Origin: Gammaproteobacteria bacterium
GTDB taxonomy: Bacteria > Pseudomonadota > Gammaproteobacteria > Ga0077536
Length of the DNA stretch: 64,000 bases
Reading direction: 5' to 3'
Assembly (NCBI GenBank): GCA_043744805.1
Contig: JAYTTZ010000131.1
Coordinates: 5,290 to 69,289 of the forward strand
Of this stretch, positions 1-49,893 are shown piece after piece. Each line of letters opens with the position of its first letter. Positions within the stretch are counted from its first letter, which is position 1. A program made the position numbers and the translations under genes. Under the pieces are notes generated by a model. The model was not told where the DNA came from. It made no database searches and worked only from the letters and a program-made list of their open reading frames with translations.

Positions 1-699
1 TCGCTCTGGTACAAGGACAACAAGCAGGAAACGGTAGACATGGCGCTTGACCAGGCGAAGCGTGCCGTCGCTTCGGTCGGTATCGAGCACGCCAACTTCC
101 GCATCCGCCTGGCGACCGGGGCGATTGCGCTCCAGCAATCCGTGAACGACGTGGTGCACCAGAACAAATGGCTTATCCTGGGCTGCCTGAACGTCATCAT
201 CCTGTTCGTGGTGAGCTTCGCCTACCGTTCGTTCGTGGCCGGTTTCATCCTCCTTATCCCCGTGAACCTGTCGAACGCCATGCTCGAAGCGGTGATGGTG
301 CTGCTCGGCATCGGGCTTGACGTCAACAGCCTGCCTATCGCAAGTATTGGCATTGGCGTGGGTATCGACTACGGCATCTACCTGGTCAGTCGCATGTGCG
401 AGGAATACCAGGACTCGCAGGACTACGGTAAGGCCATCCAGCACGCCATCCAGACTTCCGGCAAGGCGATCTTCTTCACCGCGACCATCGTGCTCATCAG
501 CATCATGCCGTGGTACTTCATGTCGAAGCTCAAGTTCCTGTCGGACATGGGCCTTCTGCTGGTGATGGTGATGACCATCAACATGATCGTCTCGCTTGTC
601 ATGCTGCCGCTGCTGGTGTGGTGGATTAAGCCGAAGTTTATCGCCGCCGAAGGCCATCTCATTTCCGAGAAGATGGACCTCACCGAACATCGGGCGTGA
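1..699 (+). CDS. RND/MMPL-superfamily exporter, C-terminal membrane domain (5'-truncated by the window edge)
   Basis: The ORF runs from the window edge to a TGA at 697-699. Hydrophobic helices such as ...LILGCLNVIILFVVSFAYRSFVAGFILLIPVNLSNAM... and ...IGIGVGIDYGIYLVSRM... resemble the last TM bundle of MMPL/HpnN-like RND permeases. Its stop overlaps the GTG start of the next gene. Confidence 0.55.
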   Translation, partial: SLWYKDNKQETVDMALDQAKRAVASVGIEHANFRIRLATGAIALQQSVNDVVHQNKWLILGCLNVIILFVVSFAYRSFVAGFILLIPVNLSNAMLEAVMVLLGIGLDVNSLPIASIGIGVGIDYGIYLVSRMCEEYQDSQDYGKAIQHAIQTSGKAIFFTATIVLISIMPWYFMSKLKFLSDMGLLLVMVMTINMIVSLVMLPLLVWWIKPKFIAAEGHLISEKMDLTEHRA

Positions 700-1775
700 T
701 TACACCCCGGTCCCAATCAGGAATTTCTTGCAAGATATCTGTGAACGAGGAAAACGTGGATAAGAGTAAAGTCATCGAGCGCCGCACAGCGCGCATCATT
801 TCGGGTTTGACGCTGTTGCTTGCGAGCGCGGCTCCTCTGGTTGGCGTCGCTGCCGAGCAGGCGCCGACCGTCCAGCTGGAAGTTGTCCACAAGGGCATTC
901 CACACGATGCGGTCTACGCCCTCAATTTCGCCGGCCAGTCGGGCCTTGCCGCAGGTGCGGCCGGCATCATCCTGGAAACCGCCGACGGCGGAGCGACCTG
1001 GAAGAAGATGGACTCACCGACGCAGGTGGGACTCTTCGGGATTACCCAGGTCGGCGACAAGAAGATCATCGTTGGCCAGCAGGGCACGGTCCTGCTTGAT
1101 CAGGGTGGCAAGTGGGTCGCCGCGAAGTCCAACAGTGACAAGCGCCTGCTGAACGTCCACTTGAACGCTGCCGGCCTGGCGATTGCGGTCGGGGAGTTCG
1201 GCACCATCTTGCGTTCCAGGGACGCCGGTACCACCTGGGAAGCCCTGACGCTCGATTGGGCCTCCTATCGGGACGACGGCTACGAACCCCATATTTACGC
1301 GGTCGACGTCCAGGACTCGGGCCGGATTGTCATCGGCGCCGAGTTCGCGTACGTGCTGGTTTCCGAAGATGGTGGCAACACCTTCAAGCTCACGAACAAG
1401 GGCGAAAAGTCCATTTTCGCGATGCACATGCTGGCCGACGGCACCGGCTATGCGGCAGGCCAGGAGGGCCTGATACTCAAGACCACCGACAACGGCAGCA
1501 CCTGGACCGCCCTGAAGAGTGGTTCCGACGCCAACCTTTTCGGCCTATGGGCTTCGCCCCAGGGCGAGATAGTCGCGACCGGCATGCGCGCGCTCCTGCG
1601 CAGCAGTGACTCCGGCAACACCTTTACCGCATCAGCGGACACCGAGGTCGTGCGCAACTGGTACGTGCCGGTAGCCATGGGTTCCACCGCGTCGAAAGGT
1701 GACGCGGGCGCGATGGTGCAGGACGTCGTTTACATCGCAGGCCATGACGGGGTCATTGCTCGCGTGTTGCGGTAG
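696..1775 (+). CDS. Ycf48-like BNR/Asp-box repeat protein (photosystem II stability/assembly factor-like), secreted
   Basis: Signal-peptide-like N-terminus (RRTARIISGLTLLLASAAPLVGVAA). Repeated S/T-x-D-x-G-x-T-W motifs (ADGGATWKKM, RDAGTTWEAL, EDGGNTFKL, TDNGSTWTAL, SDSGNTFTA) indicate a beta-propeller of the Ycf48/BNR type. GTG start at 696 overlaps the upstream RND stop; the true start may be the GTG near 763. Confidence 0.6.
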   Translation: MITPRSQSGISCKISVNEENVDKSKVIERRTARIISGLTLLLASAAPLVGVAAEQAPTVQLEVVHKGIPHDAVYALNFAGQSGLAAGAAGIILETADGGATWKKMDSPTQVGLFGITQVGDKKIIVGQQGTVLLDQGGKWVAAKSNSDKRLLNVHLNAAGLAIAVGEFGTILRSRDAGTTWEALTLDWASYRDDGYEPHIYAVDVQDSGRIVIGAEFAYVLVSEDGGNTFKLTNKGEKSIFAMHMLADGTGYAAGQEGLILKTTDNGSTWTALKSGSDANLFGLWASPQGEIVATGMRALLRSSDSGNTFTASADTEVVRNWYVPVAMGSTASKGDAGAMVQDVVYIAGHDGVIARVLR

Positions 1776-4321: not shown

Positions 4322-4355
4322 AAGGGCCGGCTTCATGCCGGCCCTTTCTTTTCTG
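4322..4355 (+). terminator. Rho-independent terminator after the DUF1302-like gene
   Basis: GGGCCGGC-ttcat-GCCGGCCC stem-loop followed by a TTTCTTTTCT U-rich tail. Confidence 0.55.
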
Positions 4356-4470: not shown

Positions 4471-5115
4471 GTGGATTTGATTGCCTACACTTGGGACTCC
4501 GCCCGAACCCTCGTCGAACTCGGAGGGCAGGTGGTCGCCGTCCAGTTGGTCATCTCAACCCTTGGCTTCGCGATCGTTCTGTACAAAATCCTGCAATTCA
4601 CCACGGTCGGCGATGGTCGTTTCAACGCCGCCAACCGCTCGGTCGACCTCTGGCTGGAAGGTGACCAGGAAACTGCCCTCGAGCAGCTTGGCAGCTCCCG
4701 GTTTACGCTGGCCCGCGACCTTAAATTTGGCCTGGAACACATCAAGACCGGAGACCGCGAACTCCTCCGCGACGAGCTCTCACGGCGTGGCATGTACTTC
4801 CTCCGCCCTTACGGTTCATTCCTGCGCGCCCTGGAAATCGTCTACTACCTCTCTCCCGTCCTGGGCCTCCTCGGCACGGTGCTCGGCATGATCGACGCTT
4901 TCCGCCACCTTGCCGCCGTCGCGGGAACGGAAAAGGGCTCGAGCGCGCTTGCGAACGGCATCTGGGAAGCCCTGGTGTGCACGGCCGTTGGTCTCGTCAT
5001 TGCCATCATCTTCACGGCGCTCCATGCCGTGCTGCAGACCCGCCTGGAGCGCGTGTCCGAAGAGACTTCGAACCTCCTCACCCGCGTGCTGACCGTCGGC
5101 GTGGGCCGTGGCTGA
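4471..5115 (+). CDS. exbB: MotA/TolQ/ExbB family proton-channel protein
   Basis: 214 aa with three predicted TM helices. The conserved C-terminal region ...YLSPVLGLLGTVLGMIDAF...ALVCTAVGLVIAIIFTALH... is typical of ExbB/TolQ. GTG start; overlaps the next gene by 8 nt. Confidence 0.8.
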   Translation: MDLIAYTWDSARTLVELGGQVVAVQLVISTLGFAIVLYKILQFTTVGDGRFNAANRSVDLWLEGDQETALEQLGSSRFTLARDLKFGLEHIKTGDRELLRDELSRRGMYFLRPYGSFLRALEIVYYLSPVLGLLGTVLGMIDAFRHLAAVAGTEKGSSALANGIWEALVCTAVGLVIAIIFTALHAVLQTRLERVSEETSNLLTRVLTVGVGRG

Positions 5116-5536
5116 ACCTGGCAAGATCTCGCTGAACCTTGGGCGTCGGCGGCGGCGTTCGATCCGGATCACGTTCGTGCCGCTGGTCGACTGTTTCATC
5201 ATCCTGCTCATTTTCTTCATGCTCCAGAGCAGCTTCGTGATCCCACATGGCATGGACCTTCGCAACGAGAAGAAAGAACAGCTGAAGGCAGGTTCAAGCA
5301 GCCAGGAATCCTCGATGGTGTACATCGAACTCCACCAGGATGGTGGCTTGTGGCTGGATGGCGAGCGTCGCGATTTGGCCGACCTGCCGCGTGCCCTGCC
5401 GAGGAAGCCTGACAAGTCCGTGATCGTGGCCAGCGATCCCGGCGTGCCGCTGCAGCGCGCCGTCGACGTCATCGACATCCTGAATGCGCATGGCCTGACC
5501 AAGGTGTCGTTGCGCGAAGCGCGGCAGTTCAAGTAG
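5108..5536 (+). CDS. exbD: ExbD/TolR biopolymer transport protein (copy 1)
   Basis: 142 aa. The N-terminal single TM with ITFVPLVDCFIILLIFFML matches the ExbD I-N-V-T-P-L-I-D-V-x-L-V-L-L-I-I-F signature, and a periplasmic domain follows. Confidence 0.75.
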   Translation: MAEPGKISLNLGRRRRRSIRITFVPLVDCFIILLIFFMLQSSFVIPHGMDLRNEKKEQLKAGSSSQESSMVYIELHQDGGLWLDGERRDLADLPRALPRKPDKSVIVASDPGVPLQRAVDVIDILNAHGLTKVSLREARQFK

Positions 5537-5540
5537 CAGG

Positions 5541-5993
5541 TTGGCCATGTCAGATCTGAGCAAACGGTCGACGATGGGTTTTGGATTCCAGCAGAGCGCG
5601 GAGGACGCGCGCGACCGCCGCTGGGAAAGCACCTTCTTCATGATCAACGTGATCTTCCTGTTGATCCTGTTCTTCATCGTGGCGGCGAAATTCGATGTCC
5701 ACCTCCAGGTGACCCCGCCCAAGTCCGCAGCCAGCAACACCTTGCCTCCAGCAGCCCCACAACTCGTGGTCCGAGCCGATGGTACCGTCAGCCTGAACGG
5801 CACGGACGTCCCGGCGAAGCAACTTGGCAAGGCGCTCAAGGCCGCAGGGGCACGGCAGGATCTCAAGATTGCCGCGGATGCGACGACGGATGCGGTGGTC
5901 GTCGCGAGGCTCATCGAGGAAGCGGGGGATTCCGGCATCACCCGCGTATCGGTCGAGACGCTGTCCCGCACGTCGAGCGACGCGGCGCCCTGA
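5541..5993 (+). CDS. exbD: ExbD/TolR biopolymer transport protein (copy 2)
   Basis: 150 aa. TM segment STFFMINVIFLLILFFIVAA followed by a periplasmic domain. Second ExbD paralog, as in exbB-exbD1-exbD2 clusters. Confidence 0.7.
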   Translation: MAMSDLSKRSTMGFGFQQSAEDARDRRWESTFFMINVIFLLILFFIVAAKFDVHLQVTPPKSAASNTLPPAAPQLVVRADGTVSLNGTDVPAKQLGKALKAAGARQDLKIAADATTDAVVVARLIEEAGDSGITRVSVETLSRTSSDAAP

Positions 5994-5998
5994 TCCCT

Positions 5999-7225
5999 TT
6001 GCCCATGTCCCGGCTGCTCCTCTGGTCCCTGCTCCTGGCAGTGTCGATTGCCCTGCATGCACTGGTGTCCTCCCGCGTTGGCAACGAGATCAAGGCTACG
6101 CAGGCGGCCACCGAGGCGCTGGCAGCGCTCGAGGCCAGGGAAAAGAAGCCACTGGTCGTGTTGGAGATCGCCAAGGCCAAGCCCGAGGAGGGCAAGCTCG
6201 AGGAGCCACCCACCGATGAGCCCCTGGATTTCGAGGAGGATTTCGAACTCCAGCCGCCCGAAGTGCTCATCGCGCCTCAGGGTGTAGTGCCGCCGCCCCC
6301 CAACGTCATGCTTTCACTTAGCGCCCAGGCGGGTGGGGCGGGCGAAGATACCCAGCCCGTCGAGATCGCACTCGCGGCCCAGAAAAGCGCCGGCGCAACT
6401 CTCGCGCGCCACGCCAACGTGCCCACCGTCGGCCTGCTTGCGCCCGGCAGCAAGGGCGGCACGGGCGGCGGTAGCGGGGGCGGCATTGCCGGCTTTGGTG
6501 TTGGCATCGGCAATGCATTGGGTGGGTCTTCCAACCAGTTCGCGGCCTACGTACAGGGCATGCGCGAAGGCGGACTCGACGTGCTCTTCGTGGTGGACGC
6601 CACGGGCTCGATGGGTTGGGTGCTGGAGGAAGTCAAAACGCGCATCCTCGACATCACCTCCGTGGTGCGTTCGCTCGTGCCGATCTCGCGCTTTGGCGTG
6701 CTGGCCTATCGCGACAAGGGCGATCCGGAATTCGTCACGAAGTTGCAGGACCTCACCTACAGCACCCTCAAGCTGCACGGCTTCCTTGCGGGGCTCAAGG
6801 CGTCCGGCGGCGGCGACATGTTCGAGGCAGTCCACCTTGCCCTGGAGCAGGGTGCCGAGCAGGCCGCATGGCGGACCGGTGCGCGGCGGATCATGATCCT
6901 CATCGGTGACGCGCCGCCGTCGGAGGACAACATAGACGCCGCCATCCGCGCAGTTTCCCGCTTTGCAGGCACCGGCGGCGTGGTGTCGGCGCTGGACGTC
7001 AGCGACCAGTCGAATCCGTCGGTGGTGGAAGCCCAGGTGGGCCGCAAGGTGAACCACGCGCTATATCGCAACGAGCCGATGTACCAGTTCCGCAATATCG
7101 CCGATGCAGGCAACGGGGATGCCGGGACCCTGGAAGGCGAGAATTCCGTCACGCGTCGGCTGGTCACGCTCATCATGGGCGACAAGTTCGCGCATGAAAT
7201 GAAAGCGCTGCTGGATCTCCTGTGA
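5999..7225 (+). CDS. TonB-like membrane-anchored protein with a C-terminal von Willebrand factor A (vWA) domain in place of the TonB C-terminal domain
   Basis: 408 aa. The N-terminal TM LLLWSLLLAVSIALHALVSS contains an S-x3-H motif (SIALH) like the TonB anchor. An acidic Pro-rich spacer (EEGKLEEPPTDEPLDFEEDFELQPPEVLIAPQGVVPPPP) and a Gly-rich linker follow. The vWA fold has a MIDAS-like DxTGS (LDVLFVVDATGSMGW), ...SGGGDMFEAV... and ...RRIMILIGDAPPSED. It sits fourth in the exbB-exbD-exbD operon, in the position normally held by tonB. Confidence 0.7.
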   Translation: MPMSRLLLWSLLLAVSIALHALVSSRVGNEIKATQAATEALAALEAREKKPLVVLEIAKAKPEEGKLEEPPTDEPLDFEEDFELQPPEVLIAPQGVVPPPPNVMLSLSAQAGGAGEDTQPVEIALAAQKSAGATLARHANVPTVGLLAPGSKGGTGGGSGGGIAGFGVGIGNALGGSSNQFAAYVQGMREGGLDVLFVVDATGSMGWVLEEVKTRILDITSVVRSLVPISRFGVLAYRDKGDPEFVTKLQDLTYSTLKLHGFLAGLKASGGGDMFEAVHLALEQGAEQAAWRTGARRIMILIGDAPPSEDNIDAAIRAVSRFAGTGGVVSALDVSDQSNPSVVEAQVGRKVNHALYRNEPMYQFRNIADAGNGDAGTLEGENSVTRRLVTLIMGDKFAHEMKALLDLL

Positions 7226-9417
7226 TGCGTAGCCGCCGCGCCACCTTCTGCATCGCCGCTTGCCTGCTGTGCTGTGGTTTACCGGCGCAGCCTGCCACTA
7301 CCGACCCCCTCGCCCGCGCCCAGTCGATGCTGGATGGCCTCACTGCCGCAACCCCGGCCCCGCAGTTTGCGGACACCGCACGCAACTTCGGCGCGCTGGT
7401 CGACGAATTGCGCCAGTCCGGGGCAGCCGACGAAGTCCTGACCAGGATGCGCAAGCTCGCGGCACGCATGCGCCAGCAGACCGAAGTGCGCTTGCAGGCC
7501 GCCGAGGCCGCAGCGGGCGAAGACGAAGGCGCCCTGGAACAGTTGTACCGATCGAGCGTCTGGGAAGACTTGAGCTTCTCGCTCACGGCCTTTCCGTTCT
7601 GGGGCAGCTGGCTCGATCTCACCATGGCCGACATCCCGGCGCGCGCGGGCGACCGAACGCAACTGCTGTGGCGGGCCAAGCGTGGCTTTCGCGCAGCGTC
7701 GATGCAGATCTACCAGCCGAGCCTCGTCTATGGCGGTTGGCTCGGCCTTGGTTTCGTGGCCGTGGCCGAAAAAACCCCCGACCGCGCGCGCGAGATTTTA
7801 AAAAGCCTGATCCAGTCGCTGTCCTTCGACGACCAGCACCCGGTGCGCAAGGCTGCGGAAGCCGAACTTGTCATCCTCGCGAAGGCGCCGGCACCCGGGG
7901 CACCCGTCGCGACGAGCACCTCCGGCTATGCCGGCGTCCCCAACCCCGTGCGTGACGAACTGCTGGTCCTGCTGGAGCAGCAGCGCAAGACCAAGGTCGG
8001 TGCGCGGGAAGCCGGCGCGAAACTGCGGGAACTCATCGCGGACGAACGCATCACCATGCCGCTCCTGGTCGATCTCATGCCCTACACGGCGGAAATCGTC
8101 AGCGAGAACACCGATCCCTACACGGATCTCTTCGCCGCCGAATTTGCCTTCCGCAACCAGCAGTGGGTGACGGCGGTGCAGAAGTACCAGAGCTTCTTCG
8201 CGCACCGCCGCGACAACCGGCAGCTCGATTTCAACCGTTTCCGCTATCGCTGGGCGGTGGCCTGCCTGAAGGCCGACCTCAACGACGCAGCCGCCAGGAT
8301 CGCGGACGACCTCGTCGACTCACCGCGCCTCGAAGCCGAAGTGGAGCGGGCGGCCGCCAAGCTCGCCTTCGTGGCACGCGCCAAGCGCCCCGACGCCAAA
8401 AACACCGGCAGTTCGCGCGCGGCGCTGAACGACGCCGCCAAGCGTTTCATCAAGAGCAATCCGTCTGATCCAGACGCCCTCGGGGCGCGCGTGCTGCTTG
8501 CACAGAACGCCGGGGATACGCAGTCAGCGCTCAAGCTGCTAGCGAACATCAAGGCGCCGGCGGGCGCCCAGGGCAGCATCGACACCACCCGCTACTTCGT
8601 CATCGCGCGGGAGTTTGCTCGCCAGGCCAACGCACCTGGTGCAAAGCTCGATGCCCTTGCGCGCGACGGCCTCAAGGTCTTCGAGGCGCTGCCCGAAGAA
8701 CAGAAGAAGAACCCCCGGAACCTCGAGTTCCTGCTGCAGCTGCGCGCGGTGGCCGATCCCGATCCTGCCGCCGTCCTCAAGGCCATCGCGCTCGCGGAGG
8801 CCAGGCCCGACGTGACGGTCAACGCCCGGCGCGCTTATTTCTGGGCCCGGCTGCGCTTGTATGACCGCCTGCATGAACCACGGCGGGCGCTTGGCGAAAT
8901 CAACGCGCTCGCGGGTGTCGTGCCAGCCTGGATGGCAGAGCAGCTCTATCCCTGGCTGAAGCAGCTCACGGACAGTGCCCTGCAAGTTGAGATTGCCACC
9001 ACCGTGGCGCCGCGCCTGAAAGCGCTGCCGGAGATGGAACGCCGTTTCCGCCTGCTTGGCATCGAGCTCCTGCTCACGGCGGAACAAGGTGAAGAGGCCT
9101 ACACCGCGGCACGCGCCTTCGTCGCCGACTTCCCGAAGGCCGGCGACGGTTATCGCATGCTGGCGCGGAGTGCGCAGGCGACGCAGCGACTCATCGAAGC
9201 CGACAATGCCTGGGCCGTGATTACCGGCAAGGTGCCGCCATCGTTTGAAATCTGGTGGGAGGGCATGTTGTCGCGCATCGAACTCCGTGCAGTGTCCACT
9301 CGCCCGGAAGCGGCCTGCGCGCTGGTGGCCAAGGTCGCCCGTCAGAAACCCCTGAACGCAGCGCTCGACGCGCGCTGGCAGGCGCTGCGCCAACGGGTGT
9401 CCTGCGCCCCAGGCTGA
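7222..9417 (+). CDS. Large secreted or lipoprotein alpha-helical-repeat (TPR-like) protein, function unknown
   Basis: 731 aa. Start overlaps the vWA gene by 4 nt. Signal peptide MMRSRRATFCIAACLLCCGLPAQP with a possible lipobox IAAC. Ala/Leu/Arg/Glu-rich helical composition throughout. It occupies the position of the TPR protein in exbB-exbD-exbD-tonB-TPR clusters. Confidence 0.5.
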   Translation: MMRSRRATFCIAACLLCCGLPAQPATTDPLARAQSMLDGLTAATPAPQFADTARNFGALVDELRQSGAADEVLTRMRKLAARMRQQTEVRLQAAEAAAGEDEGALEQLYRSSVWEDLSFSLTAFPFWGSWLDLTMADIPARAGDRTQLLWRAKRGFRAASMQIYQPSLVYGGWLGLGFVAVAEKTPDRAREILKSLIQSLSFDDQHPVRKAAEAELVILAKAPAPGAPVATSTSGYAGVPNPVRDELLVLLEQQRKTKVGAREAGAKLRELIADERITMPLLVDLMPYTAEIVSENTDPYTDLFAAEFAFRNQQWVTAVQKYQSFFAHRRDNRQLDFNRFRYRWAVACLKADLNDAAARIADDLVDSPRLEAEVERAAAKLAFVARAKRPDAKNTGSSRAALNDAAKRFIKSNPSDPDALGARVLLAQNAGDTQSALKLLANIKAPAGAQGSIDTTRYFVIAREFARQANAPGAKLDALARDGLKVFEALPEEQKKNPRNLEFLLQLRAVADPDPAAVLKAIALAEARPDVTVNARRAYFWARLRLYDRLHEPRRALGEINALAGVVPAWMAEQLYPWLKQLTDSALQVEIATTVAPRLKALPEMERRFRLLGIELLLTAEQGEEAYTAARAFVADFPKAGDGYRMLARSAQATQRLIEADNAWAVITGKVPPSFEIWWEGMLSRIELRAVSTRPEAACALVAKVARQKPLNAALDARWQALRQRVSCAPG

Positions 9418-9465: not shown

Positions 9466-11028
9466 ATGCGGATTATCGATTTCTTCGACAAGGCAGCCGA
9501 TGCGCATCCCGCGCGCACCGCTTTCATCTCGGCCGCCGGCAGCTACAGCTATCGCGAGATGCAGGATCTCTCGCGCCGCATCGGCGGTGCCATTCAGCGC
9601 AGGGGCCTGTCGGAAGCCGGCCGCATTGCGGTCTACGCGCCCAACAATGTCCTGGCATTCGCCTGCGTGCTGGGGGCCTTCCGCGCCAACGCGACCTGGG
9701 TGCCCATCAACGCCCGCAACGCGCTGGACGCCAACATCGATTTCATGAACCTCACCGAATGCGAATGGCTGTTCTACCACGGCGTGTTCAGCGCGAACGT
9801 CGCGGCCATCCGCGCGCAAGTGCCCAGCCTGCGCCACGTCGTGTGCATCGACGCCAGCGAAGGTGGGATTGAGTCGCTCGACGCCTTCATGTGCGAAGGC
9901 GCAGGCCTTGAAGTGCCCGACATCCCCTACGACATGCATCGCATGACCACCATCCTCGGCAGCGGGGGCACCACGGGGCGATCAAAAGGCATCCTCTGGG
10001 ACAGCCTGACCTGGTCCACGCTCATCGCGGAAACCTCCATCGCGATGCCGCCGGGCAAGCAGCCGCCCGTCCATCTCTGCGCCGCGCCGATGACCCACGC
10101 TGCCGGCATCCTGGCTTTCATGCTGACCCCGCAGGCGCCCACCCACGTGGTGGTGGAGAAGGTCGATCCCCTGGAGTTGATGGAAACCATCCAGCGCCAC
10201 CGGGTGACCCACGTCTTCCTGCCGCCCACCGCGCTCTACGCCATGCTGGCGCACCCCAGGGTGCGGGAGTTCGACTACTCCTCGCTGACGCATTTCCTCA
10301 TTGCCGCATCTCCCGTCTCGCCGGACAAGTTGCGTGAGGCGGTAGAGATCTTTGGTCCCTGCATGTGCCAGTGTTACGGGCAGGTGGAAGTGCCCATGCT
10401 CGTCACCTACCTGCCGCCGGAAGAACTTGCCCGGGCGGCCACTGATCCGGCGCGCGCGCACCTGTTGAAAAGTTGCGGCAAGCCCTGCTCACTGACCCTG
10501 ATGGGCGTGATGGACGACGACGGTCAACTCGTCCCGCGCGGCGAACGCGGTGAAATCGTGGTGCGCGGTGAGCTGGTGGCGCCCTGCTACTACCAAAACC
10601 CGGAAGGCACCGCCGAGGCGCACCGCTTTGGCTGGCACCACACGGGCGACGTGGCCTGGCAGGACGACGAAGGCTATGTCTACATCGTCGATCGCAAGAA
10701 GGACATGATCATCACCGGTGGCTTCAACGTCTTCTCCGCTGAAGTCGAGAGCGCCATCAACGCGCATCCCGACGTGGAGAACTGCGCGGTGATCGGCGTG
10801 CCGGACGAGAAATGGGGCGAGATGGTCACCGCTATCGTGCTGCTGCGCCCGGGGCGTAGCGTGGCGGAGGCTGCACTCATTGAATTCGCGAGGGAGCGCC
10901 TCGGCAGCGTGAAGGCGCCGAAGAAAGTCGAGATCTGGGAGGATCTGCCGCGCTCCCCGGTCGGCAAGGTGCTCAAGACCGAAATCCGCAAGAAATTCTG
11001 GGCCGATACCGACCGCGCAGTCAATTGA
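9466..11028 (+). CDS. AMP-dependent synthetase/ligase (acyl-CoA synthetase, class I adenylate-forming enzyme)
   Basis: 520 aa. AMP-binding P-loop ILGSGGTTGRSKGI, ...GYGQVE..., and a C-terminal ...TGDVAWQDDEGYVYIVDRKKDMIITGGFNV... with a PVGKVLK tail. Confidence 0.85.
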   Translation: MRIIDFFDKAADAHPARTAFISAAGSYSYREMQDLSRRIGGAIQRRGLSEAGRIAVYAPNNVLAFACVLGAFRANATWVPINARNALDANIDFMNLTECEWLFYHGVFSANVAAIRAQVPSLRHVVCIDASEGGIESLDAFMCEGAGLEVPDIPYDMHRMTTILGSGGTTGRSKGILWDSLTWSTLIAETSIAMPPGKQPPVHLCAAPMTHAAGILAFMLTPQAPTHVVVEKVDPLELMETIQRHRVTHVFLPPTALYAMLAHPRVREFDYSSLTHFLIAASPVSPDKLREAVEIFGPCMCQCYGQVEVPMLVTYLPPEELARAATDPARAHLLKSCGKPCSLTLMGVMDDDGQLVPRGERGEIVVRGELVAPCYYQNPEGTAEAHRFGWHHTGDVAWQDDEGYVYIVDRKKDMIITGGFNVFSAEVESAINAHPDVENCAVIGVPDEKWGEMVTAIVLLRPGRSVAEAALIEFARERLGSVKAPKKVEIWEDLPRSPVGKVLKTEIRKKFWADTDRAVN

Positions 11029-11064: not shown

Positions 11065-12441
11065 ATGCACCTCCGCAAGTACGACGCTAACTACAGTCGG
11101 CGCTTTTTCCTGCAGCAGTCCGCGCGGGGCATTTTCGCCGCCGGGGTGCTGGGCTCGGTGTGGGATGCCGTCGCCGAAAACGGGGGCTTCGAGAACGCCT
11201 ACCCCGATGAACTGAAATCCATCGAGGTCTACACCAAGGGCAAGCTGAAGCCCGGCGACGTCATCGACGCCAGCAACGTGGACCTGGTGCAGGATCTACT
11301 CGATCCCATCCGGCTCATGCAGGTGAAGCAGATGGGCCGCAAGCTCGACCTGGTAGCGGCCACCACGGACATGACCAAGCTCTCGCCGGTGGACTACATC
11401 GAGGCGACCTTGCGTAACAGGGGCCAGGCGAAGCTCGACGAGAAAGGCAACATCTACACGCTGGACGGATCGCCGTGGATTGGTGGCAACCCGTTCCCGG
11501 AGCCCAGGTCCGCGCTGGAAGTGTTCGTGCCGATCACGCTGTCGTGGGGCAGGCACGACGTGTCCTTCTACATGGTGAAGGATTACGAGATCAATCCGGA
11601 CGGCGGCCAGGGTTACTACTACGAAATCGCCTGGTGCGAGATGGCCACCGTGGCACGCGTCACCCTCGATCCAAAACCCTACATGAAAGGCGCCGAGAAG
11701 CTGCTGCGCTACCAGTCGGTGTTCTTCAACTACCCCAACGATGCCAAGGGCACGTCCTTCCTCAACATCTGGTCCTATGACCAATCGCAGTTCCCCGAAC
11801 TCATGGGCTACCTGCCGGCTTTCAAGCGCGTGCGGCGGTTCCCGTCGAGCCAGCGTTTCGAGCCGCTGATCCCGGGCACCACCTTGTACCTCTCGGATGC
11901 CTGGGCGGCCGGCGATCCCTATCTCACCTGGGGCAACTTCAAGATCGTCGGGCGCGGGCCCTTCCTGGCCGGGCTGACGCAGAACTGGAACAGCGCCGAT
12001 CCGAACTGGGAAGGCAAGACGCACGGTGGACCCAAGGGCCTCACGTTCTGGGACACCAAGGTGGAACTCGTGCCCGAAGTCATCGTGGTGGATGCCGAGC
12101 CCACGTTCTATCCGCAGGCGCCGGTGGGCAAGAAGCGCGTGTGGTTCGATGCGCGCACCCTGCTGCCGGTGAACATGGTCACCTACGACCGCCGGGGCGA
12201 GCCGTTCAAATCCTTCGACGGGTGTTATTCGCTGTACGAAGACGGCGACAAGAAGGTGATGGACGGCAAGAACCCGTACTGGTCATGGGTCAACGTGCAT
12301 GCCCACGACGTGCAGAGCAATCGCATGACCCGTCTGGAGCAGACGCGAACGATCCGTGGTGGTTACGAGATGAAGGTCAACGACCAGGGCCTCTACGACC
12401 AGTACCTGACCGAAGCCGCCATCCGTCGTCTGGGTACCTGA
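11065..12441 (+). CDS. DUF1329-like (LolA-like fold) periplasmic protein
   Basis: 458 aa. N-terminal twin-arginine-like signal (YSRRFFLQQSARGIFAAGVLGS). The size and its co-occurrence with a DUF1302-like OMP and an RND/Ycf48 pair match the known DUF1302/DUF1329 association. Family call is from memory. Confidence 0.5.
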   Translation: MHLRKYDANYSRRFFLQQSARGIFAAGVLGSVWDAVAENGGFENAYPDELKSIEVYTKGKLKPGDVIDASNVDLVQDLLDPIRLMQVKQMGRKLDLVAATTDMTKLSPVDYIEATLRNRGQAKLDEKGNIYTLDGSPWIGGNPFPEPRSALEVFVPITLSWGRHDVSFYMVKDYEINPDGGQGYYYEIAWCEMATVARVTLDPKPYMKGAEKLLRYQSVFFNYPNDAKGTSFLNIWSYDQSQFPELMGYLPAFKRVRRFPSSQRFEPLIPGTTLYLSDAWAAGDPYLTWGNFKIVGRGPFLAGLTQNWNSADPNWEGKTHGGPKGLTFWDTKVELVPEVIVVDAEPTFYPQAPVGKKRVWFDARTLLPVNMVTYDRRGEPFKSFDGCYSLYEDGDKKVMDGKNPYWSWVNVHAHDVQSNRMTRLEQTRTIRGGYEMKVNDQGLYDQYLTEAAIRRLGT

Positions 12442-12493: not shown

Positions 12494-13732
12494 CTAACGG
12501 CCCAGCACCGTCACCGCCACCACGGCTTCTTCCACGCCAATCACGCCGCCACCGTTCTGCGCCAGCGCGATCTTCGCGCCTTCCACCTGCCGTAAGCCGG
12601 CTTCACCACGCAATTGGGTCACCAGTTCGAAGATCTGCCCCAAGCCCGTCGCGCCGATGGGATGGCCCTTGCACTCAAGGCCACCGGAGACATTCACCGG
12701 CAGGCGCCCACCCAGCGACAGCTCCCCGCGCTCGGCTGCAGGGCCAGCATCGCCGAGGGCGCTTAGTCCCAGCGCTTCCACTTCGATGATTTCACCCATC
12801 GCCGTGGCGTCGTGCACTTCGGCCAACGAGATGTCGCCAGGACCAATGCCGGCCGCCGCCCAGGCGCGGCGCGCGGCGTGTGCGGTGGCGTGGTTGGCAT
12901 AGTCCTCGGGCTGCCGGTCGCTGCCGGTCTGCAGCACGCTGGCGAGCACGCGCATGGCGCGGCCCTGCCGGCCCTGCAACCTGGCCAGGCCCGCCGCATT
13001 GCAGACGATGGCCGCCGCGGCGCCGTCGCTCACGGGCGAGCACATCGGCAGGGTCAGTGGATAGACGATCGGCGCGGCGGCCATCACCTCGTCGATCGAG
13101 AACGGCTTGCGATACTGAGCCAGCGGATTGTGGACGGAGTGCTGGTGGTTCTTGGCGGCAACGGCGGCAAGCTGTCGCTTCGTGGTGCCGAAGGTCTTCA
13201 TGTGCAGCCTGCAGAAGCCGGCGTAGACGTCCATGAAGACGCTGTAGGGTTTGTCGGAGGTGGTGCCAGGCGGGACTTCGACGCCAGCGCCCATGCGGAC
13301 AAGCGTGTCCCGGTTGTGCTCCACGGTGTGGACGTCCCAGGCGCCGTCGAAGGCGCTGAACATGCGGGCCCGGTCGGGTGAGTACATTTTCTCCGCGCCG
13401 ATGGCGAGCACGATGTCGGCAGCGCCGGCCTGCACGTAGTTGACGGCAAGGTGGAACGCGGTACTGCCGGTGGCGCAGGCGTTCTCGACGTTGATCACCG
13501 GTACGCGCTGGATGCCACATTCCCGCAGGGCGATTTCACCACGCACCATGTCCTGGCCTTCCATGTGGCCCTGCACGCAATTGCCGTAGAACACCGCCTG
13601 GAGGTCGCTGGTCCCGGCGCCGGCGTCGGCCAGCACGCCGGCCAGTGCCTCGGCGGCCAGTTGTTTGATGGATCGATCGAGCTGCTTGCCGAAAGGCGTC
13701 ATGCTGACGCCGGCTACGAATACCGTATTCAT
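12494..13732 (-). CDS. Thiolase-family protein (SCP2-type thiolase / acetyl-CoA C-acyltransferase-like)
   Basis: Thiolase active-site context ...NVENACATGSTAFHLA... with the Cys nucleophile, and a C-terminal ...GGLECKGHPIGATGLGQIFEL... The chosen start is the internal MNTVFVAGVSMTPFGK; the ORF track extends to 13756. Confidence 0.85.
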   Translation of the reverse strand: MNTVFVAGVSMTPFGKQLDRSIKQLAAEALAGVLADAGAGTSDLQAVFYGNCVQGHMEGQDMVRGEIALRECGIQRVPVINVENACATGSTAFHLAVNYVQAGAADIVLAIGAEKMYSPDRARMFSAFDGAWDVHTVEHNRDTLVRMGAGVEVPPGTTSDKPYSVFMDVYAGFCRLHMKTFGTTKRQLAAVAAKNHQHSVHNPLAQYRKPFSIDEVMAAAPIVYPLTLPMCSPVSDGAAAAIVCNAAGLARLQGRQGRAMRVLASVLQTGSDRQPEDYANHATAHAARRAWAAAGIGPGDISLAEVHDATAMGEIIEVEALGLSALGDAGPAAERGELSLGGRLPVNVSGGLECKGHPIGATGLGQIFELVTQLRGEAGLRQVEGAKIALAQNGGGVIGVEEAVVAVTVLGR

Positions 13733-13821
13733 GTTTGGTTCCTCCCGTGCCAGCATGTTAACTGCTGGGCGAAAGCGTCGCGACGCACCCGCAACGATTG
13801 CCCCGTCCCCGGTGATGCCGG

Positions 13822-17098: not shown

Positions 17099-19138
17099 AT
17101 GTGGCGTGTAGGCATCGACGTAGGCGGGACGTTCACCGATTTGTACGCGTGGAATGACGAGACCCGCGAGCAGGTCACTTCCAAGGTCCTCACTACGCGC
17201 CCCGACCGCGCGTCGGGGGTCATCAACGCCATTCGCGAAGCAGGAATCTCCTTCCAGCAGATTTCGCACCTGATGCATGGCACCACCACCGCGACCAACG
17301 CGCTCATCGAACGCGACTATCCGGATCCGGCGATGGTCACCACCGAGGGCTTCCGCGACACCATCGAGATTGGCCGCCAGCATCGCGAGCACTTGTACGA
17401 TCCCTACCAGGTCAAGCCGCGCCCTATCATCAAGCGCCGCTTCCGCTACACGGTCAATGAACGCACCGACGCGCAGGGCGCCGTGGTAAGGCCGCTCGTC
17501 CGCGCCGATGCGCTGGCCGTGGCGGAGAAGATCAAGGCGGCCAACATCAAGTCCGTCGCGGTGGCCTTCATCAACGCCTACTGCAACGGCCAGCACGAAC
17601 GCGAGATGCGCGACATCATCCGCGAAGTGAACCCCGACACCTGGGTGGTGATTTCCTCCGAAACATGCCCGGTGTTCCGCGAGCACGGCCGCTTCTGCAC
17701 CACCGCGATCCGCGCGGCGATCATCCCCGTGATGGAAGTCTATTTCGCGCGGCTCGAGGCCGCATTGAAGGGCGAAGGTTTCGGCGGATCGCTCCTGATC
17801 CTCAAAAGCAGCGGTGGCATCACGGGCGTCGACTACGCCCGCCAGCATCCGGAAGAACTCATCGAATCAGGTCCTGCCGGCGGCGTGGCCTATGCGGGCT
17901 ACCTGAGCCAGCTCTGCGGTTACCCCAACATCATCCACACTGACGTCGGTGGGACGAGTTTCGACGTCTCCATCGTCGAGAACGGCAAGGGGCTCATCAC
18001 CCGCGACCACGAGATTGAATGGGAAATCCCCTGCATCGTGCCCATGCTCGACATCCACAGCGTGGGTGCCGGCGGGGGCTCCATCGGCTGGATCGACGAA
18101 GGTGGCTCGCTCCGCGCCGGCCCGCGCAGCGCCGGCTCAAGCCCGGGTCCGGCGTGCTACGGCCTCGGCGGCATCGAACCCACCATCACCGACGCCAACC
18201 TGCTGCTCGGTCGCATTGAGCCTACCCTGGGCGGCAAGATGACGCTCGACCATGCCGCGGCGGAAGCCTCGATGGCACGCCTTGCGGTGGAGATCGGACT
18301 GTCCACTATCGAGACGGCCGACGGCATGATCCGCATCGGTTGCGAGAACATGGCCCAGGCCGTCAAGAAAGTGCTGGTCTCGCGCGGCCGCGACCCGCGC
18401 GACTTCGTCCTGGCGAGCTTCGGCGGTGCCGGCACCATGCATGCCTGTTTCGTGGCCGAGTCGCTGAACATCCCGCGCGTCATCATGCCCATCCACGCGG
18501 GGGTTGCCTCCGCTTTTGGTGCGACGGCCATGGATCTCCGGCACGACCTCGAAGCCTTCTACTTCTCTCCGGTAGCCTCGGCCGACCTCTCGACGGTCAA
18601 CACCCTCTACGCGGATCTCGAGGCAGAAGGCGTACGCCTGCTCGAAGCCGACGGGGTGTCCCGCGACCGGATTGAAATCCGGCGCACCGCGCAGATGCGC
18701 TACGTTGGCCAGTCCTACGAAGTGGAAACGCCCATGCCCAGCCAGGCGCTGGGCGCCGGGGACATCCCGGCGGTCGAGGCGCTGTTCCACCAGTGCCACG
18801 AGCGGGAGTATGGTGTGAGCTCCAGCGACTTCGCGCCCGCGCTGGTGTCGGTGGCCGTGACCGTCACCGGCCGCATGGAGGCGCCACCGGCCGTAGAGAT
18901 CGGGGCGCAGGGCGGTGAGCAGGTCAAGGGCGAGCGGCAGATCTGGTTCAACCGCGCATGGCACGCCAGCACGGTTTACAACGGCCACGCCCTGCCGCCA
19001 GACGCCAAGGTGTCCGGCCCCTGCATCGTCGAGTACGAACATGCCTGCGCCGTGCTGCCACCGCAGGCAATCGCTACCGTCGATCGCTTCGGCAACCTCG
19101 TGATCGACCTCAGCCGCAACCTGGTTTCCAACGCTTGA
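17099..19138 (+). CDS. hyuA: Hydantoinase/oxoprolinase family A subunit (HyuA-like, ATP-dependent)
   Basis: 679 aa. N-terminal MWRVGIDVGGTFTDLY is the ASKHA/hydantoinase_A signature. ...DVGGTSFDVSIVENG... is a second nucleotide-binding motif. Confidence 0.85.
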   Translation: MWRVGIDVGGTFTDLYAWNDETREQVTSKVLTTRPDRASGVINAIREAGISFQQISHLMHGTTTATNALIERDYPDPAMVTTEGFRDTIEIGRQHREHLYDPYQVKPRPIIKRRFRYTVNERTDAQGAVVRPLVRADALAVAEKIKAANIKSVAVAFINAYCNGQHEREMRDIIREVNPDTWVVISSETCPVFREHGRFCTTAIRAAIIPVMEVYFARLEAALKGEGFGGSLLILKSSGGITGVDYARQHPEELIESGPAGGVAYAGYLSQLCGYPNIIHTDVGGTSFDVSIVENGKGLITRDHEIEWEIPCIVPMLDIHSVGAGGGSIGWIDEGGSLRAGPRSAGSSPGPACYGLGGIEPTITDANLLLGRIEPTLGGKMTLDHAAAEASMARLAVEIGLSTIETADGMIRIGCENMAQAVKKVLVSRGRDPRDFVLASFGGAGTMHACFVAESLNIPRVIMPIHAGVASAFGATAMDLRHDLEAFYFSPVASADLSTVNTLYADLEAEGVRLLEADGVSRDRIEIRRTAQMRYVGQSYEVETPMPSQALGAGDIPAVEALFHQCHEREYGVSSSDFAPALVSVAVTVTGRMEAPPAVEIGAQGGEQVKGERQIWFNRAWHASTVYNGHALPPDAKVSGPCIVEYEHACAVLPPQAIATVDRFGNLVIDLSRNLVSNA

Positions 19139-19162
19139 ACACACCGCTCCGGGAGAAGTGAA

Positions 19163-20959
19163 ATGAACGAGAAAGTAACCGTTGATTCCGCGATCGCGCA
19201 GACGAAGCTCGACCCGGTCACCTTCGAAGTCCTGCGCAGCATCTTCGAGTACGCGAGTGATCGCATGTCCACCGTGCTGCAGCGGGCGTCCTTCTCGCCC
19301 ATCCTGGCCGACATGGTGGATTTCTCGAACGCCATCTACGACTACGACTGCCAACTGCTGTCCCAGGCGGCCAACTGCCCGATCCACCTCGCCGCGATGA
19401 AGTTCAGCGCCGAGGCGATCATCGCCCGCTACGGCCTCGCCAACATCTACGAAGGCGATGTCATCTGCGTGAACGACCCCTACCAGGGCGGCACGCACAT
19501 CAACGACATGACGTTCCTCTCACCCATCTTCGTCGAGGGCGAACTGCTGGGCTTCGCGGTGAGCCGCGGGCACTGGATGGATCTCGGTGGTGGTGCCGCC
19601 GGTGGCCAGGCGTTCGCCGGTACCCACATCGCGGGCGAGGGCCTGCGCCTGCCGCCCGTCAAGATCTACGAGCGCAACGTGGTGCGCCAGGAAATCGTCG
19701 ATATCCTCATGAACAACACGCGCACGCCGCATTTCGTGAAGGGCGACCTCCAGGCGCATGTCGGCTGCCTGCGCGCAGGCACCCAGGAAATGCAGCGCGC
19801 CGCCGCCAAGTACGGCGTGATCACCCTCAAGATCGCGATGAAGCAGTTGCAGGAATACACCGAGCGCATCGTGCGCAAGAGCATCAGCGAGATCCCCGAT
19901 GGCGTGTACGAAGGCGAAGACTACGCGGATACGGACGGCTTCTCCGACAAACCCATCCAGATCAAGGTGAAGCTGATCGTGGAAGGCTCGGGCATCACGG
20001 TGGACTTCTCCGGTACCGACAGCGTGGTGAAAGGCGCGATCAATTCGCCCTATGCCAACACGGCGTCGGCTTCGCTGTACTCGCTGCAGTTCTTCCTCGC
20101 GCCGCATGCGCCGCAGAACCAGGGCATGTTCAACCCCATCACGCTGAAGATCCCCGAGAACTCCTGGCTGAACGCCAAATGGCCGGCACCGACCATCGGC
20201 TGCACCACGCTGACTTCCTCCAAGATCACGAGTGCCATCTGGCAGGCGCTGGCAAAAGCGATTCCGGAGCGCGTCACGGGTTCCACCAGTGCGGATTGCA
20301 ACTGGTTCGTGTCTTCCGTGGTGGCAACCAATGGCGCCACCGACGTGTTCTCCGACCTGCCGGCCGGTGGCTGGGGCGCGACACCCTACAGCGATGGCAT
20401 GAACGTCACCGAAGACCCGCTCGGCAACTGCATGAACATGCCGGCCGAAACGGCGGAAATCCTGTTCCCAATCGCCTACGAAGCTTTCGAACTGCGGCAG
20501 GACAGCGGTGGACCGGGACGCTATCGCGGTGGACTCGGTGCGATCTTCAAGGTGCGTTACCTCGCCGAAGGTGCGCTCAGCATGGAGACGGCCCGCACGC
20601 TCGAAGGCAGCCCTGGCGTTGCCGGTGGCGAGCATTCCGACGTGCAGCGCCAGACCAAGATCCACGCCGATGGCCGGAATGAAGTCATCGGCGGCCTCGA
20701 CACTGACGGTAGCTGGAAGAACCCGCTGCTCTGCGCGCATCCGTTCAGCCACGGCGAGACGTTCATGTTCGAGAGCACCGGCGGTGGCGGCTATGGCCTT
20801 GCGCTGGAGCGCGACCCGCAAGCGGTGCTCGACGACGTGCTGGACGAATACGTGTCGCTTGGCGCGGCCCGTGATCGTTACGGCGTGGTGATCGATCCAG
20901 CCTCCATGCAGATCGACGCGCAGGCCACGACGGCGTTGCGGCAGCGACTCGCCGCCTAG
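19163..20959 (+). CDS. hyuB: Hydantoinase/oxoprolinase family B subunit (HyuB-like)
   Basis: 598 aa. Hydantoinase_B features include DPVTFEVLRSIFEYASDRM, ...NDPYQGGTHINDM... and ...GGGGYGLALERDPQAVLDDV... It lies 25 nt downstream of the A subunit. Confidence 0.85.
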   Translation: MNEKVTVDSAIAQTKLDPVTFEVLRSIFEYASDRMSTVLQRASFSPILADMVDFSNAIYDYDCQLLSQAANCPIHLAAMKFSAEAIIARYGLANIYEGDVICVNDPYQGGTHINDMTFLSPIFVEGELLGFAVSRGHWMDLGGGAAGGQAFAGTHIAGEGLRLPPVKIYERNVVRQEIVDILMNNTRTPHFVKGDLQAHVGCLRAGTQEMQRAAAKYGVITLKIAMKQLQEYTERIVRKSISEIPDGVYEGEDYADTDGFSDKPIQIKVKLIVEGSGITVDFSGTDSVVKGAINSPYANTASASLYSLQFFLAPHAPQNQGMFNPITLKIPENSWLNAKWPAPTIGCTTLTSSKITSAIWQALAKAIPERVTGSTSADCNWFVSSVVATNGATDVFSDLPAGGWGATPYSDGMNVTEDPLGNCMNMPAETAEILFPIAYEAFELRQDSGGPGRYRGGLGAIFKVRYLAEGALSMETARTLEGSPGVAGGEHSDVQRQTKIHADGRNEVIGGLDTDGSWKNPLLCAHPFSHGETFMFESTGGGGYGLALERDPQAVLDDVLDEYVSLGAARDRYGVVIDPASMQIDAQATTALRQRLAA

Positions 20960-25738: not shown

Positions 25739-26099
25739 ACGTGCTCCCCTCGAACCCGCTGTTCCCGTCACGCGGCTGCAGGCGATTATTGTTTTTCTGG
25801 ATTGGCTTCAGGCCAGGCACGGCGAACTGGGCGTTACGCGACGCTGGCTCTGGCGCCAACTTTCGTTTGCCGACGTGGCGCTGTCAACACGCCCTTGCCC
25901 GCTGCGCACGTTGGGATGCCGGTGTCCGGCGCGGCGCCATAACAGGCACGCATGTGCAGCCGAACCAGGCTCGACGACGGTTTACCCTGAATGGGGCAAA
26001 CGTCGGGCAAGGGCGATTCCGGCCGTCTACCGCTCATGGGACTCATGCGCTAAGGTCGATGCCCGCCGACCAGGTGTCCAACCGACCAGGAGTGCTGCA

Positions 26100-28963: not shown

Positions 28964-28975
28964 TGGGGTTTCCTC

Positions 28976-49345: not shown

Positions 49346-49893
49346 TGCCCACCTCCGAACAGGCCATCCTGCACGTGGCGGTCGTAGCGAAGCGCCGTGT
49401 CCACCACCCGCAGCGCAGGGTGCAGGACATGGGGCGCGGCGGTGGCGCTGTCGAGGATGTGCCGCACTTCGAGCCCGCGCAGGGTGAGGGCGTCGGCGAT
49501 GAACTGACGATGGCAGTGCGTGGGACTGGCCTCGGCGCACATGAGCGCAATGCCGAGGCGCGTGGCGCCGTGACACACCCGCTCGAGGGTCGCCTGGAAG
49601 GCCTCGCTTTCCATGTGCGTGGCATAGGCCTGGAAGGCGGGTTCCGCCAGCGCTGCGTGGGGGGAATCCTGCGGCGCCTGGCGCAGTCCGCCCAAGGCTT
49701 CGCCGAGCCAGCGGTAACGCAGCCCCGCCTGGCCCAGCGCGGCCTCCAGGGCCTCGCGATTGAACTGGGGATGGCGGCGGGACCACGGCGAAGCGCGGAC
49801 GTCCGCAAGGACCTGCACGCCGTGGGCCAGCAGGCGTCCGCGGAAGTCGGCAAAGGCCAGGTTGCTGTGGCCAACGGTAAAAATCACAGGCAC
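49336..49893 (-). CDS. DUF488-family protein
   Basis: 185 aa. MPVIFTVGHSNLAFADFRGRLLAHGVQVLADVRASPWSRRHPQFNREAL matches the DUF488 N-terminal consensus (IYTIGHSN...LVDVRS.P.SR..P.F). Confidence 0.6.
   Translation of the reverse strand: MPVIFTVGHSNLAFADFRGRLLAHGVQVLADVRASPWSRRHPQFNREALEAALGQAGLRYRWLGEALGGLRQAPQDSPHAALAEPAFQAYATHMESEAFQATLERVCHGATRLGIALMCAEASPTHCHRQFIADALTLRGLEVRHILDSATAAPHVLHPALRVVDTALRYDRHVQDGLFGGGQCA

Follow-up and report, generated by a model that had tools for sequence, protein, structure and literature searches.

A vWA-headed TonB/TolA-like protein encoded with an ExbB/ExbD-type motor and a TPR-like protein inside an AmeABCD-type gene cassette of Gammaproteobacteria

What would a Ton/Tol-type motor drive if the protein in the place of TonB ended in a vWA domain? 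The question is raised by five consecutive genes of an uncultured gammaproteobacterium (GTDB lineage Ga0077536; GenBank assembly GCA_043744805.1), which encode an ExbB-like protein, two ExbD-like proteins, a 408-aa protein with a TonB-type anchor and a vWA head, and a 731-aa secreted TPR-like protein. We analysed them within a stretch of 64,000 nucleotides of contig JAYTTZ010000131.1 (positions 5,290 to 69,289, forward strand), referred to here as the window, and compared them with related and distant loci. Ton and Tol are the only well-understood routes by which energy is delivered to the Gram-negative outer membrane, and a third type of transducer, with an adhesion head that depends on metal, would, if true, widen this picture. 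Our preferred reading, to which we give a probability of roughly 0.6, is that the five genes encode a Ton/Tol-like machine that is driven by the proton motive force through a vWA transducer and energises a hydrophobic-substrate step of an AmeABCD-type system, the genes of which surround the module. Membership of a class of motor-plus-vWA-transducer systems is, taken by itself, very probable, while the specific link to hydrophobic-substrate trafficking is tentative and stands at somewhat less than even odds.

The vWA protein, its motor and the TPR-like protein

The 408-aa protein, with the N-terminus MPMSRLLLWSLLLAVSIALHALV, consists of an anchor, a spacer and a head. Its transmembrane (TM) helix contains no Asp and carries instead an S-x3-H motif within the segment AVSIALHAL (S16, nucleotides 6044-6046; H20, 6056-6058). 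The spacer has 19% Pro and 16% Glu at residues 49-110 and 26% Gly at residues 111-190. In the head, the segment VDATGSM, T202 included, holds the loop D200-A-T-G-S204 (6596-6610) of the putative metal-ion-dependent adhesion site (MIDAS), and the segment GDAPP holds D304 (6908-6910). The AlphaFold 2 (AF2) model shows a confident TM helix at residues 3-48, a disordered region at residues 50-176 (pLDDT <50) and a confident vWA fold at residues 173-407, with a pLDDT of about 90 for the domain proper (about 190-408). Searches with Pfam and NCBIfam models detected no TonB_C or TolA domain in this protein at E<=0.01. The initial annotation, made from the sequence of the window, had described a TonB-type S-x3-H anchor, an acidic Pro/Glu-rich spacer and a vWA domain with a MIDAS-like DxTGS loop replacing the TonB C-terminal domain. 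All of these features are borne out: the anchor motif is invariant in close and distant homologues, the Pfam matches to the vWA domain lie above cutoffs, its loop is conserved and the C-terminus folds as vWA in the model.

In an alignment of 24 homologues (47-82% identity), residues W9, S16 and H20 are invariant, as are D200, T202 and G203 of the DATGS loop, D304 and a linker block of the form F78...PP...PPP...GG. The N-terminal flanks of the homologues are rich in Arg, which fits an N-in, C-out topology as in TonB. After the helix, a segment of alternating hydrophobic residues (PLVVLEIA, residues 51-58) aligns across homologues, where it reads QVVIEI, EVEIAI and similar, and by this pattern it is a candidate for the “motor box” strand of TonB and TolA. 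The best Foldseek match of the vWA domain among PDB structures is BatB of Bacteroides thetaiotaomicron (3ibs, E 1.5e-10); further matches include the Bacteroides fragilis aerotolerance protein (4jdu), integrin beta I-like domains, and TEM8 and CMG2, which are anthrax-toxin receptors.

Residues of the motor were counted in open reading frames (ORFs) taken from 80 related genome loci. The ExbB-like protein keeps the pore-lining T136 (4876-4878) and T171 (4981-4983) in 64 of 64 homologues. ExbD, TolR and MotB proteins carry an essential TM Asp, and this residue (D28, 5189-5191) is kept by ExbD1 in all 67 homologues, whereas the equivalent position of ExbD2 is Asn (N36, 5646-5648) in 65 of 66. This pattern of conservation makes it most likely that the stator is an asymmetric ExbD1/ExbD2 heterodimer with a single protonatable Asp, and hence with one proton-binding site. 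Both ExbDs usually keep the Asp in distant family members; in one distant locus (L089), the first ExbD shows the same change to Asn independently (PLINV). Among NCBIfam models, the ExbB-like protein is nearest to those for TolQ (best) and ExbB, in both cases far below the family cutoffs. A Zorya-type anti-phage motor was considered and rejected: PADLOC gave marginal ZorA matches (E 0.006) to the generic MotA/ExbB core and none for the other four proteins.

In 25 of 25 aligned homologues, the 731-aa protein has an N-terminal Sec-type signal peptide ahead of a conserved DPLxRAQ motif, and it has two invariant Cys near its C-terminus (C699, 9316-9318; C728, 9403-9405); the combination fits a periplasmic protein with a disulfide. 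An invariant acidic block, GEDEGALExLY, lies at about residues 98-109. The AF2 model (pLDDT 88.8) is all-helical, with 37 helices arranged as hairpin repeats, and its PDB matches are TPR superhelices (IFT-A subunits, Ctr9, TTC7B, Ski3 and APC/C subunits) and a periplasmic scaffold of the Campylobacter flagellar motor (9hmf_K). Pfam gave no match in the protein of the window and faint TPR matches in a few homologues. The expectation that a secreted, helical protein is encoded downstream of the vWA gene is thus confirmed. We rejected a lipoprotein identity for it: IAAC occurs near the N-terminus, but no Cys is conserved there among homologues.

The five-gene layout exbB-exbD1-exbD2-“tonB”-TPR was recovered as first annotated, with all ORFs on the + strand at the coordinates given in Table 1 and with the Pfam support listed there. 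Three overlaps of 8, 4 and 4 nt had been proposed for the gene junctions. The 8-nt overlap of exbB and exbD1 is present, and so is a 4-nt overlap of the vWA and TPR genes if the latter starts at GTG; with the ATG, which is the start in the database entry P0121, this overlap is 1 nt. The other two junctions are gaps, of 4 nt (TTG start) or 10 nt (ATG start) between exbD1 and exbD2 and of 5 or 11 nt between exbD2 and the vWA gene. A promoter scan showed no sigma-70-like promoter upstream of exbB, a result that is uninformative at this G+C content.

Table 1. Features of the five-gene module and of the genes flanking it (window coordinates).
Feature	Coordinates	Strand	Support or remark
HAE3/MMPL-type RND transporter, C-terminal part (AmeD-like)	40..699	+	MMPL; NCBIfam HAE3 TIGR00921, 6e-21; runs off left window edge
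BNR/Ycf48-like beta-propeller (AmeC-like)	696..1775	+	Pfam PSII_BNR
DUF1302 outer-membrane protein (AmeA-like), 747 aa	2053..4296	+	Pfam; unusually long
Terminator-like hairpin	4322..4346	+	10-bp stem, 8 G-C pairs, T-rich tail; between DUF1302 gene and exbB
ExbB/TolQ-like proton-channel subunit, 214 aa	4471..5115	+	Pfam MotA_ExbB, 6e-24
ExbD1/TolR-like subunit, 142 aa	5108..5536	+	Pfam ExbD, 4e-17
ExbD2/TolR-like subunit, 150 aa	5541..5993	+	Pfam ExbD, 3e-15
TonB/TolA-like protein with vWA head, 408 aa	5999..7225	+	Pfam VWA/VWA_2/VWA_4, ~1e-7, residues 194-320
Secreted TPR-like alpha-solenoid protein, 731 aa	7222..9417	+	Predicted structure; no Pfam match
Acyl-CoA ligase, fatty-acid-CoA ligase type	9466..11028	+	Pfam, NCBIfam
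DUF1329 LolA-like protein (AmeB-like)	11065..12441	+	Pfam; twin-arginine-type signal SRRFFLQ
SCP-x-type thiolase (Thiolase_C_1)	12494..13756	-	Position conserved in many related loci

The module in related and distant genomes

The related set comprises 80 loci from a scan of species-representative genomes, all of them metagenome-assembled genomes of uncultured Gammaproteobacteria or Pseudomonadota, some labelled Haliea or Porticoccaceae. According to tblastn, almost all loci with sufficient flank, down to 43% identity of the vWA protein, share the order RND-[DUF1329]-BNR-DUF1302-ExbB-ExbD1-ExbD2-vWA-TPR-[acyl-CoA ligase]-DUF1329-thiolase(-). Of 65 related loci, about 60 combine the motor, vWA and TPR genes. 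Where both flanks are available (40 loci), the module has DUF1302 on its upstream side and/or DUF1329 on its downstream side in 35 cases. ORF-based counts missed the motor genes of L001, L014, L028, L062 and L077, which the tblastn table shows to be there. In five further loci (L016, L029, L044, L047 and L071), the vWA and TPR genes follow straight after DUF1302, and ExbB/ExbD genes are absent within 10 kb. One of these vWA proteins, P0074 of L029, retains the S-x3-H motif without adjoining motor genes, which would make it an analogue of orphan TonB proteins; by the same analogy, the transducer of a motorless locus may borrow a motor encoded elsewhere.

The family extends far beyond this set. 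A profile search with the vWA protein against 1.84 billion representatives returned 333 proteins at E<=1e-30 and 5,767 at E<=1e-10. Among the best 150 matches, 80 are 300-520 aa long; an N-terminal TM segment is present in 70 of these 80, and in 56 it includes S-x3-H (7% expected by shuffling). The S, the H and D-x-T-x-S-M are invariant in an alignment of 20 distant vWA proteins (24-50% identity), and S-x3-H is present in the vWA proteins of all ten distant loci for which genomic contexts were sampled. Seven of these contexts have the order vWA-ExbB-ExbD-ExbD-TPR and two, which have only one ExbD, the order ExbB-ExbD-vWA-(x)-TPR; motor, vWA and TPR genes hence co-occur in nine of the ten, in permuted order. 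Together with the related loci, these results show that the arrangement is conserved far beyond chance and is not a fortuitous fusion.

The TPR proteins of two distant loci are homologous as well. By hhalign, the profile of the 731-aa protein aligns with the TPR protein of L084 over 671 columns (96%, E 3.9e-9), including the acidic GxLExLY...W.D block and a C-terminal W.VIT.K..P..WW.GML.RI motif, and with that of L088 over 332 columns (72.5%, E 3e-5), in the N-terminal part only, acidic block included. The TPR protein therefore belongs to a conserved family, which accompanies the motor and vWA genes. The early suggestion that the downstream helical protein is a candidate partner of the vWA protein gains from this: it is conserved, co-inherited, periplasmic and TPR-like.

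Links to Ame-type genes recur in three of the distant loci. L082 (contig ctg322050_22x_c, 5785-9122) has an orphan vWA gene with a TM helix next to DUF1302-x-BNR-MMPL-DUF3108-like genes, a Thiolase_C_1 thiolase and an AMP-binding enzyme. This vWA gene follows genes for an extracytoplasmic function (ECF) sigma factor, a zf-HC2 anti-sigma factor and an unannotated 285-aa protein, which hints at envelope-signal-dependent regulation of the system. A LolA-like TP_0789/DUF1329 gene lies directly 3' of the TPR gene in L086 and L089. Upstream of the module in L085 and L088 lie genes for an SCP-x-type thiolase and a ChsH2-like OB protein.

Two observations on the wider family stand apart from these comparisons. 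In L083, L085 and L090, genes for a CDP-alcohol phosphatidyltransferase and a PD40/Tricorn-like beta-propeller lie downstream of the TPR gene on the - strand; they may mark a further connection to lipids or the envelope, and the propeller is reminiscent of TolB. The same vWA subfamily also includes proteins of a second architecture (550-710 aa; for example P0243, P0252, P0254 and P0265), with an FHA-looking N-terminus, a central vWA domain and no N-terminal TM helix, probably reflecting an unrelated cytoplasmic use of the same domain.

Proteins of the architecture described here have been proposed in silico as “vWA force transducers”, encoded beside tolQ, two tolR genes and a TPR gene (Mol Biol Evol 2025, PMC12204202). 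The proteins are described as having an SHLS motif in the TM helix, a linker that is disordered and includes a motor box, and a vWA domain at the C-terminus. The reference locus is that of Tichowtungia aerotolerans. AlphaFold 3 models dock the His on the motor; the function is stated as unknown, no deletion phenotypes are reported and gliding motility is suggested (PMC12204202). The remark in the initial annotation that no characterised proton motive force transducer has this architecture still holds, but the architecture itself has been in the literature since that proposal and belongs to a broad family, not to a one-off chimera. The present module shares with the published class the three-domain layout (Ser and His in the TM helix, disordered linker, vWA head), two non-identical TolR/ExbD genes and a large TPR gene alongside. 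This likeness rests on profile matches to numerous proteins that agree in layout and neighbourhood, the Tichowtungia transducers themselves being compared by description only. The SHLS motif is partly kept, its L and S positions being occupied by V27 and I31. The gene order also differs, being motor-vWA-TPR here and TPR-motor-vWA or vWA-motor-TPR in the published class; the Tichowtungia locus has two transducer genes and ours one; Asn replaces the TM Asp in ExbD2; and the module of these uncultured Gammaproteobacteria is placed inside an AmeABCD-type cassette, a context that points to hydrophobic-substrate trafficking, whereas the paper suggests gliding motility. A second published class, TPH-vWA (PMC12204202), comprises vWA proteins that have a TolR-like pore helix with a conserved Asp and no SHLS motif, and only tolQ nearby. 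We rejected it for the 408-aa protein, the TM helix of which has S-x3-H and no Asp, with two ExbD genes adjoining.

The classical systems offer partial parallels. With TonB, the 408-aa protein has in common the S-x3-H helix, a Pro-rich spacer able to span the periplasm, a gene position directly after exbB-exbD-exbD and, as proposed here, pulling driven by the proton motive force. It differs in having no TonB C-terminal domain, which implies that TonB-box strand exchange is not used, and no TonB-dependent transporter is encoded nearby. The S-x3-H anchor, the TolQ-like motor and a TPR protein in the operon are likewise shared with TolA and the Tol-Pal system. However, the C-terminal domain of TolA is absent, the linker does not form a long alpha-helix, and neither tolB nor pal is found among the genes of the window scanned against Pfam. 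The TPR protein encoded in the Tol-Pal operon, CpoB (YbgF), is far smaller than the approximately 730-aa protein found here.

The Ame-type neighbourhood, a proposed mechanism and its rivals

AmeABCD of Castellaniella defragrans is a tetrapartite HAE3-RND system involved in monoterpene tolerance and transport and in Nile-red efflux (PMC6394551). DUF1302, DUF1329, BNR and RND genes are cofit in random-barcode transposon sequencing data (10.1101/072470), and Pseudomonas putida mutants in DUF1302/DUF1329 and BNR/RND genes show a phenotype on two fatty esters, Tween 20 and butyl stearate (10.1101/2020.07.04.188060). The system itself, which is implicated in terpene and fatty-ester handling, is poorly understood. 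All four families flank the module in the window (Pfam PF06980, PF07044, PSII_BNR and MMPL). Whereas published cassettes have no motor, vWA or TPR genes, the one described here is split by the five-gene module and an acyl-CoA ligase gene, and our literature search found no paper that ties DUF1302 systems to Ton/Tol (ExbB/ExbD)-type motors or to vWA transducers. Placed inside an AmeABCD-type transporter and beside an acyl-CoA ligase and a thiolase, the module most likely has the job of energising the movement of hydrophobic or acyl substrates, and the two adjacent enzymes speak for a carboxylated lipid-like substrate that is taken up and activated. Steroid catabolism was considered as a context and rejected; no diagnostic steroid genes are present among the window ORFs scanned, which include mixed catabolic genes instead.

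The flanking genes have peculiarities of their own. The Pfam model for DUF1302 (541 positions) matches only residues 10-296 of the DUF1302 protein (model positions 5-234), and the C-terminal two thirds are strongly diverged or expanded relative to typical members such as AmeA (605 aa). The DUF1329 protein starts with NYSRRFFLQQSARG..., a twin-arginine-type motif, which suggests that it is exported folded via the twin-arginine translocation (Tat) route, possibly as a cofactor- or ligand-loaded periplasmic carrier.

On the observed domain architecture, conserved motifs, intact motor residues, secreted TPR protein and synteny we place the following mechanism, in which we infer motor docking, force transduction and the MIDAS ligand from what is established for Ton and Tol, cryo-EM structures included. 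A pentamer of the ExbB-like protein would surround the ExbD1/ExbD2 heterodimer, with a protonatable Asp in ExbD1 only. The S-x3-H helix of the 408-aa protein would dock it against the outer face of the ExbB ring, in the manner of TonB and TolA, and proton flow through the ExbD1 Asp would drive rotation or a conformational cycle. The disordered linker, first Pro/Glu-rich and then Gly-rich, would span the periplasm and transmit force to the vWA head, which would hold an acidic residue of a partner through the metal ion of its MIDAS site. The initial annotation had proposed a transducer of this kind, and its reading is supported as far as sequence and predicted structure reach. Candidates for this partner are the TPR protein, with its GEDEGALE block (residues 98-105), and the DUF1302, DUF1329 and BNR components; the TPR-like solenoid would be a dedicated periplasmic adaptor or partner. 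The module would thereby energise an outer-membrane or periplasmic step that moves hydrophobic or acyl substrates through the Ame-type system. A more far-reaching version, which we regard as doubtful, is that the module represents a third functional type of Ton/Tol-like machine, in which a single-Asp motor drives a DUF1302/DUF1329/BNR/HAE3-RND step through a MIDAS grip on a TPR adaptor or an outer-membrane partner. Such a machine might, for example, open the DUF1302 barrel or pull a LolA-like carrier loaded with lipid or a hydrophobic substrate.

Several results weigh against the preferred reading. The whole class of vWA transducers is so far known only in silico, from sequence. A profile of the N-terminal region (residues 1-75, 20 homologues) gave only chance matches to PDB chains and did not retrieve TonB or TolA, the segment being too short, so the similarity of the anchor rests on a short motif, its conservation and its context. 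The motor-box candidate is a conserved pattern only, for which the AF2 monomer model predicts no beta-strand. The MIDAS loop is D-x-T-x-S and not the canonical D-x-S-x-S, and the second MIDAS loop has Asp where Thr is usual (GGGD). The terminator-like hairpin between the DUF1302 gene and exbB suggests that the module is a transcription unit of its own, set apart from the DUF1302 gene. The 80 related loci form one clade; part of the synteny is therefore inherited and not independently selected. Five related loci (L063, L070, L072, L073 and L079) have the module alone, in L063 amid unrelated genes for a nucleoside hydrolase, a sugar ABC transporter and NAPRTase, and seven of the ten distant contexts have no Ame-type neighbours, from which it follows that the transport link may be clade-specific. 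Finally, RND pumps of the HAE3 type are described as exporters, so that any energised step may run in either direction.

The same points bear on the alternatives. The machinery could be as described and yet serve a general job, either Tol-Pal-like tethering and envelope upkeep or the moving of adhesins for gliding, as suggested in PMC12204202, the Ame neighbourhood being a clade-specific accident of insertion. The standalone loci, the Ame-free majority of distant contexts, the hairpin and the orphan-tonB-like vWA genes without an adjacent motor (L016, L029, L044, L047 and L071) all fit this explanation. We consider it plausible but less likely than the preferred reading: DUF1302/DUF1329 genes flank the module in most loci with both flanks despite rearranged surroundings, links to LolA-like, DUF1302, BNR and MMPL genes recur in three distant arrangements (L082, L086 and L089), and no gliding or adhesin genes are found among the window genes scanned against Pfam or among the listed neighbours of the ten distant loci.

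A static role is less probable still. The pairing of vWA and TPR proteins is typical of Bat operons, and in BatA/BatB-BatC of Bacteroides and Leptospira a membrane-anchored vWA protein is likewise combined with a TPR protein. Had the pair a Bat-like function, as a periplasmic scaffold or a metal or stress complex, ExbB and ExbD would merely provide a stator or an anchor, and the vWA protein would transmit no force. The closest folds of the vWA domain (3ibs, from BatB, and 4jdu) and the flagellar-motor scaffold among the TPR matches speak for this possibility. Yet no MoxR ATPase, DUF58, BatD/E or BatA-type domain is encoded near the module (neighbours at 1-21 kb of the window), the invariant S-x3-H and the constant pairing with ExbB/ExbD would be unexpected for a passive scaffold, and the linker, long and disordered, is similar to domain II of TonB and TolA. 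To our knowledge, Bat proteins have not been linked to ExbB/ExbD, and no S-x3-H anchor has been reported for them. As for mere chance adjacency or an annotation artefact, in which the vWA and motor genes would be functionally unrelated, only the five related loci without motor genes beside the vWA gene could be cited in its favour. The synteny survey effectively refutes it, with the four families together in the great majority of related and distant loci, in differing orders, and with genes that are tightly packed or overlapping.

The architecture was thus already a computational proposal of 2025. New here are the link between the module and Ame-type genes, in the related loci and in three distant lineages, the Asp/Asn pair of ExbDs and the recognition of the TPR partner as a conserved family, additions that turn an orphan class into a testable hypothesis. 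The locus and its relatives provide the first concrete functional lead for the vWA-transducer class, and the module may account for the passage of hydrophobic substrates across the outer membrane in the abundant, uncultured Gammaproteobacteria of aquatic habitats.

Other genes of the window

The rest of the window encodes hydantoinase/acetone-carboxylase-like pairs, Rieske oxygenases, a pyrroloquinoline quinone (PQQ) dehydrogenase and a Baeyer-Villiger-type monooxygenase. Two pairs of hydantoinase A/B (oxoprolinase or acetone-carboxylase-like) genes are located at 17099-20959 (+) and 26678-31093 (-), and the B subunit of the latter (26678-28963) has a C-terminal acetone carboxylase gamma domain. 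The gene for the Baeyer-Villiger-type flavin monooxygenase (24086-25771) lies between the two pairs. A 727-aa ORF at 47921-50104 (-) matches Peptidase_S13 (D-Ala-D-Ala carboxypeptidase) at residues 282-708 only, and its unannotated N-terminal extension of about 280 aa may be due to an over-long ORF call.

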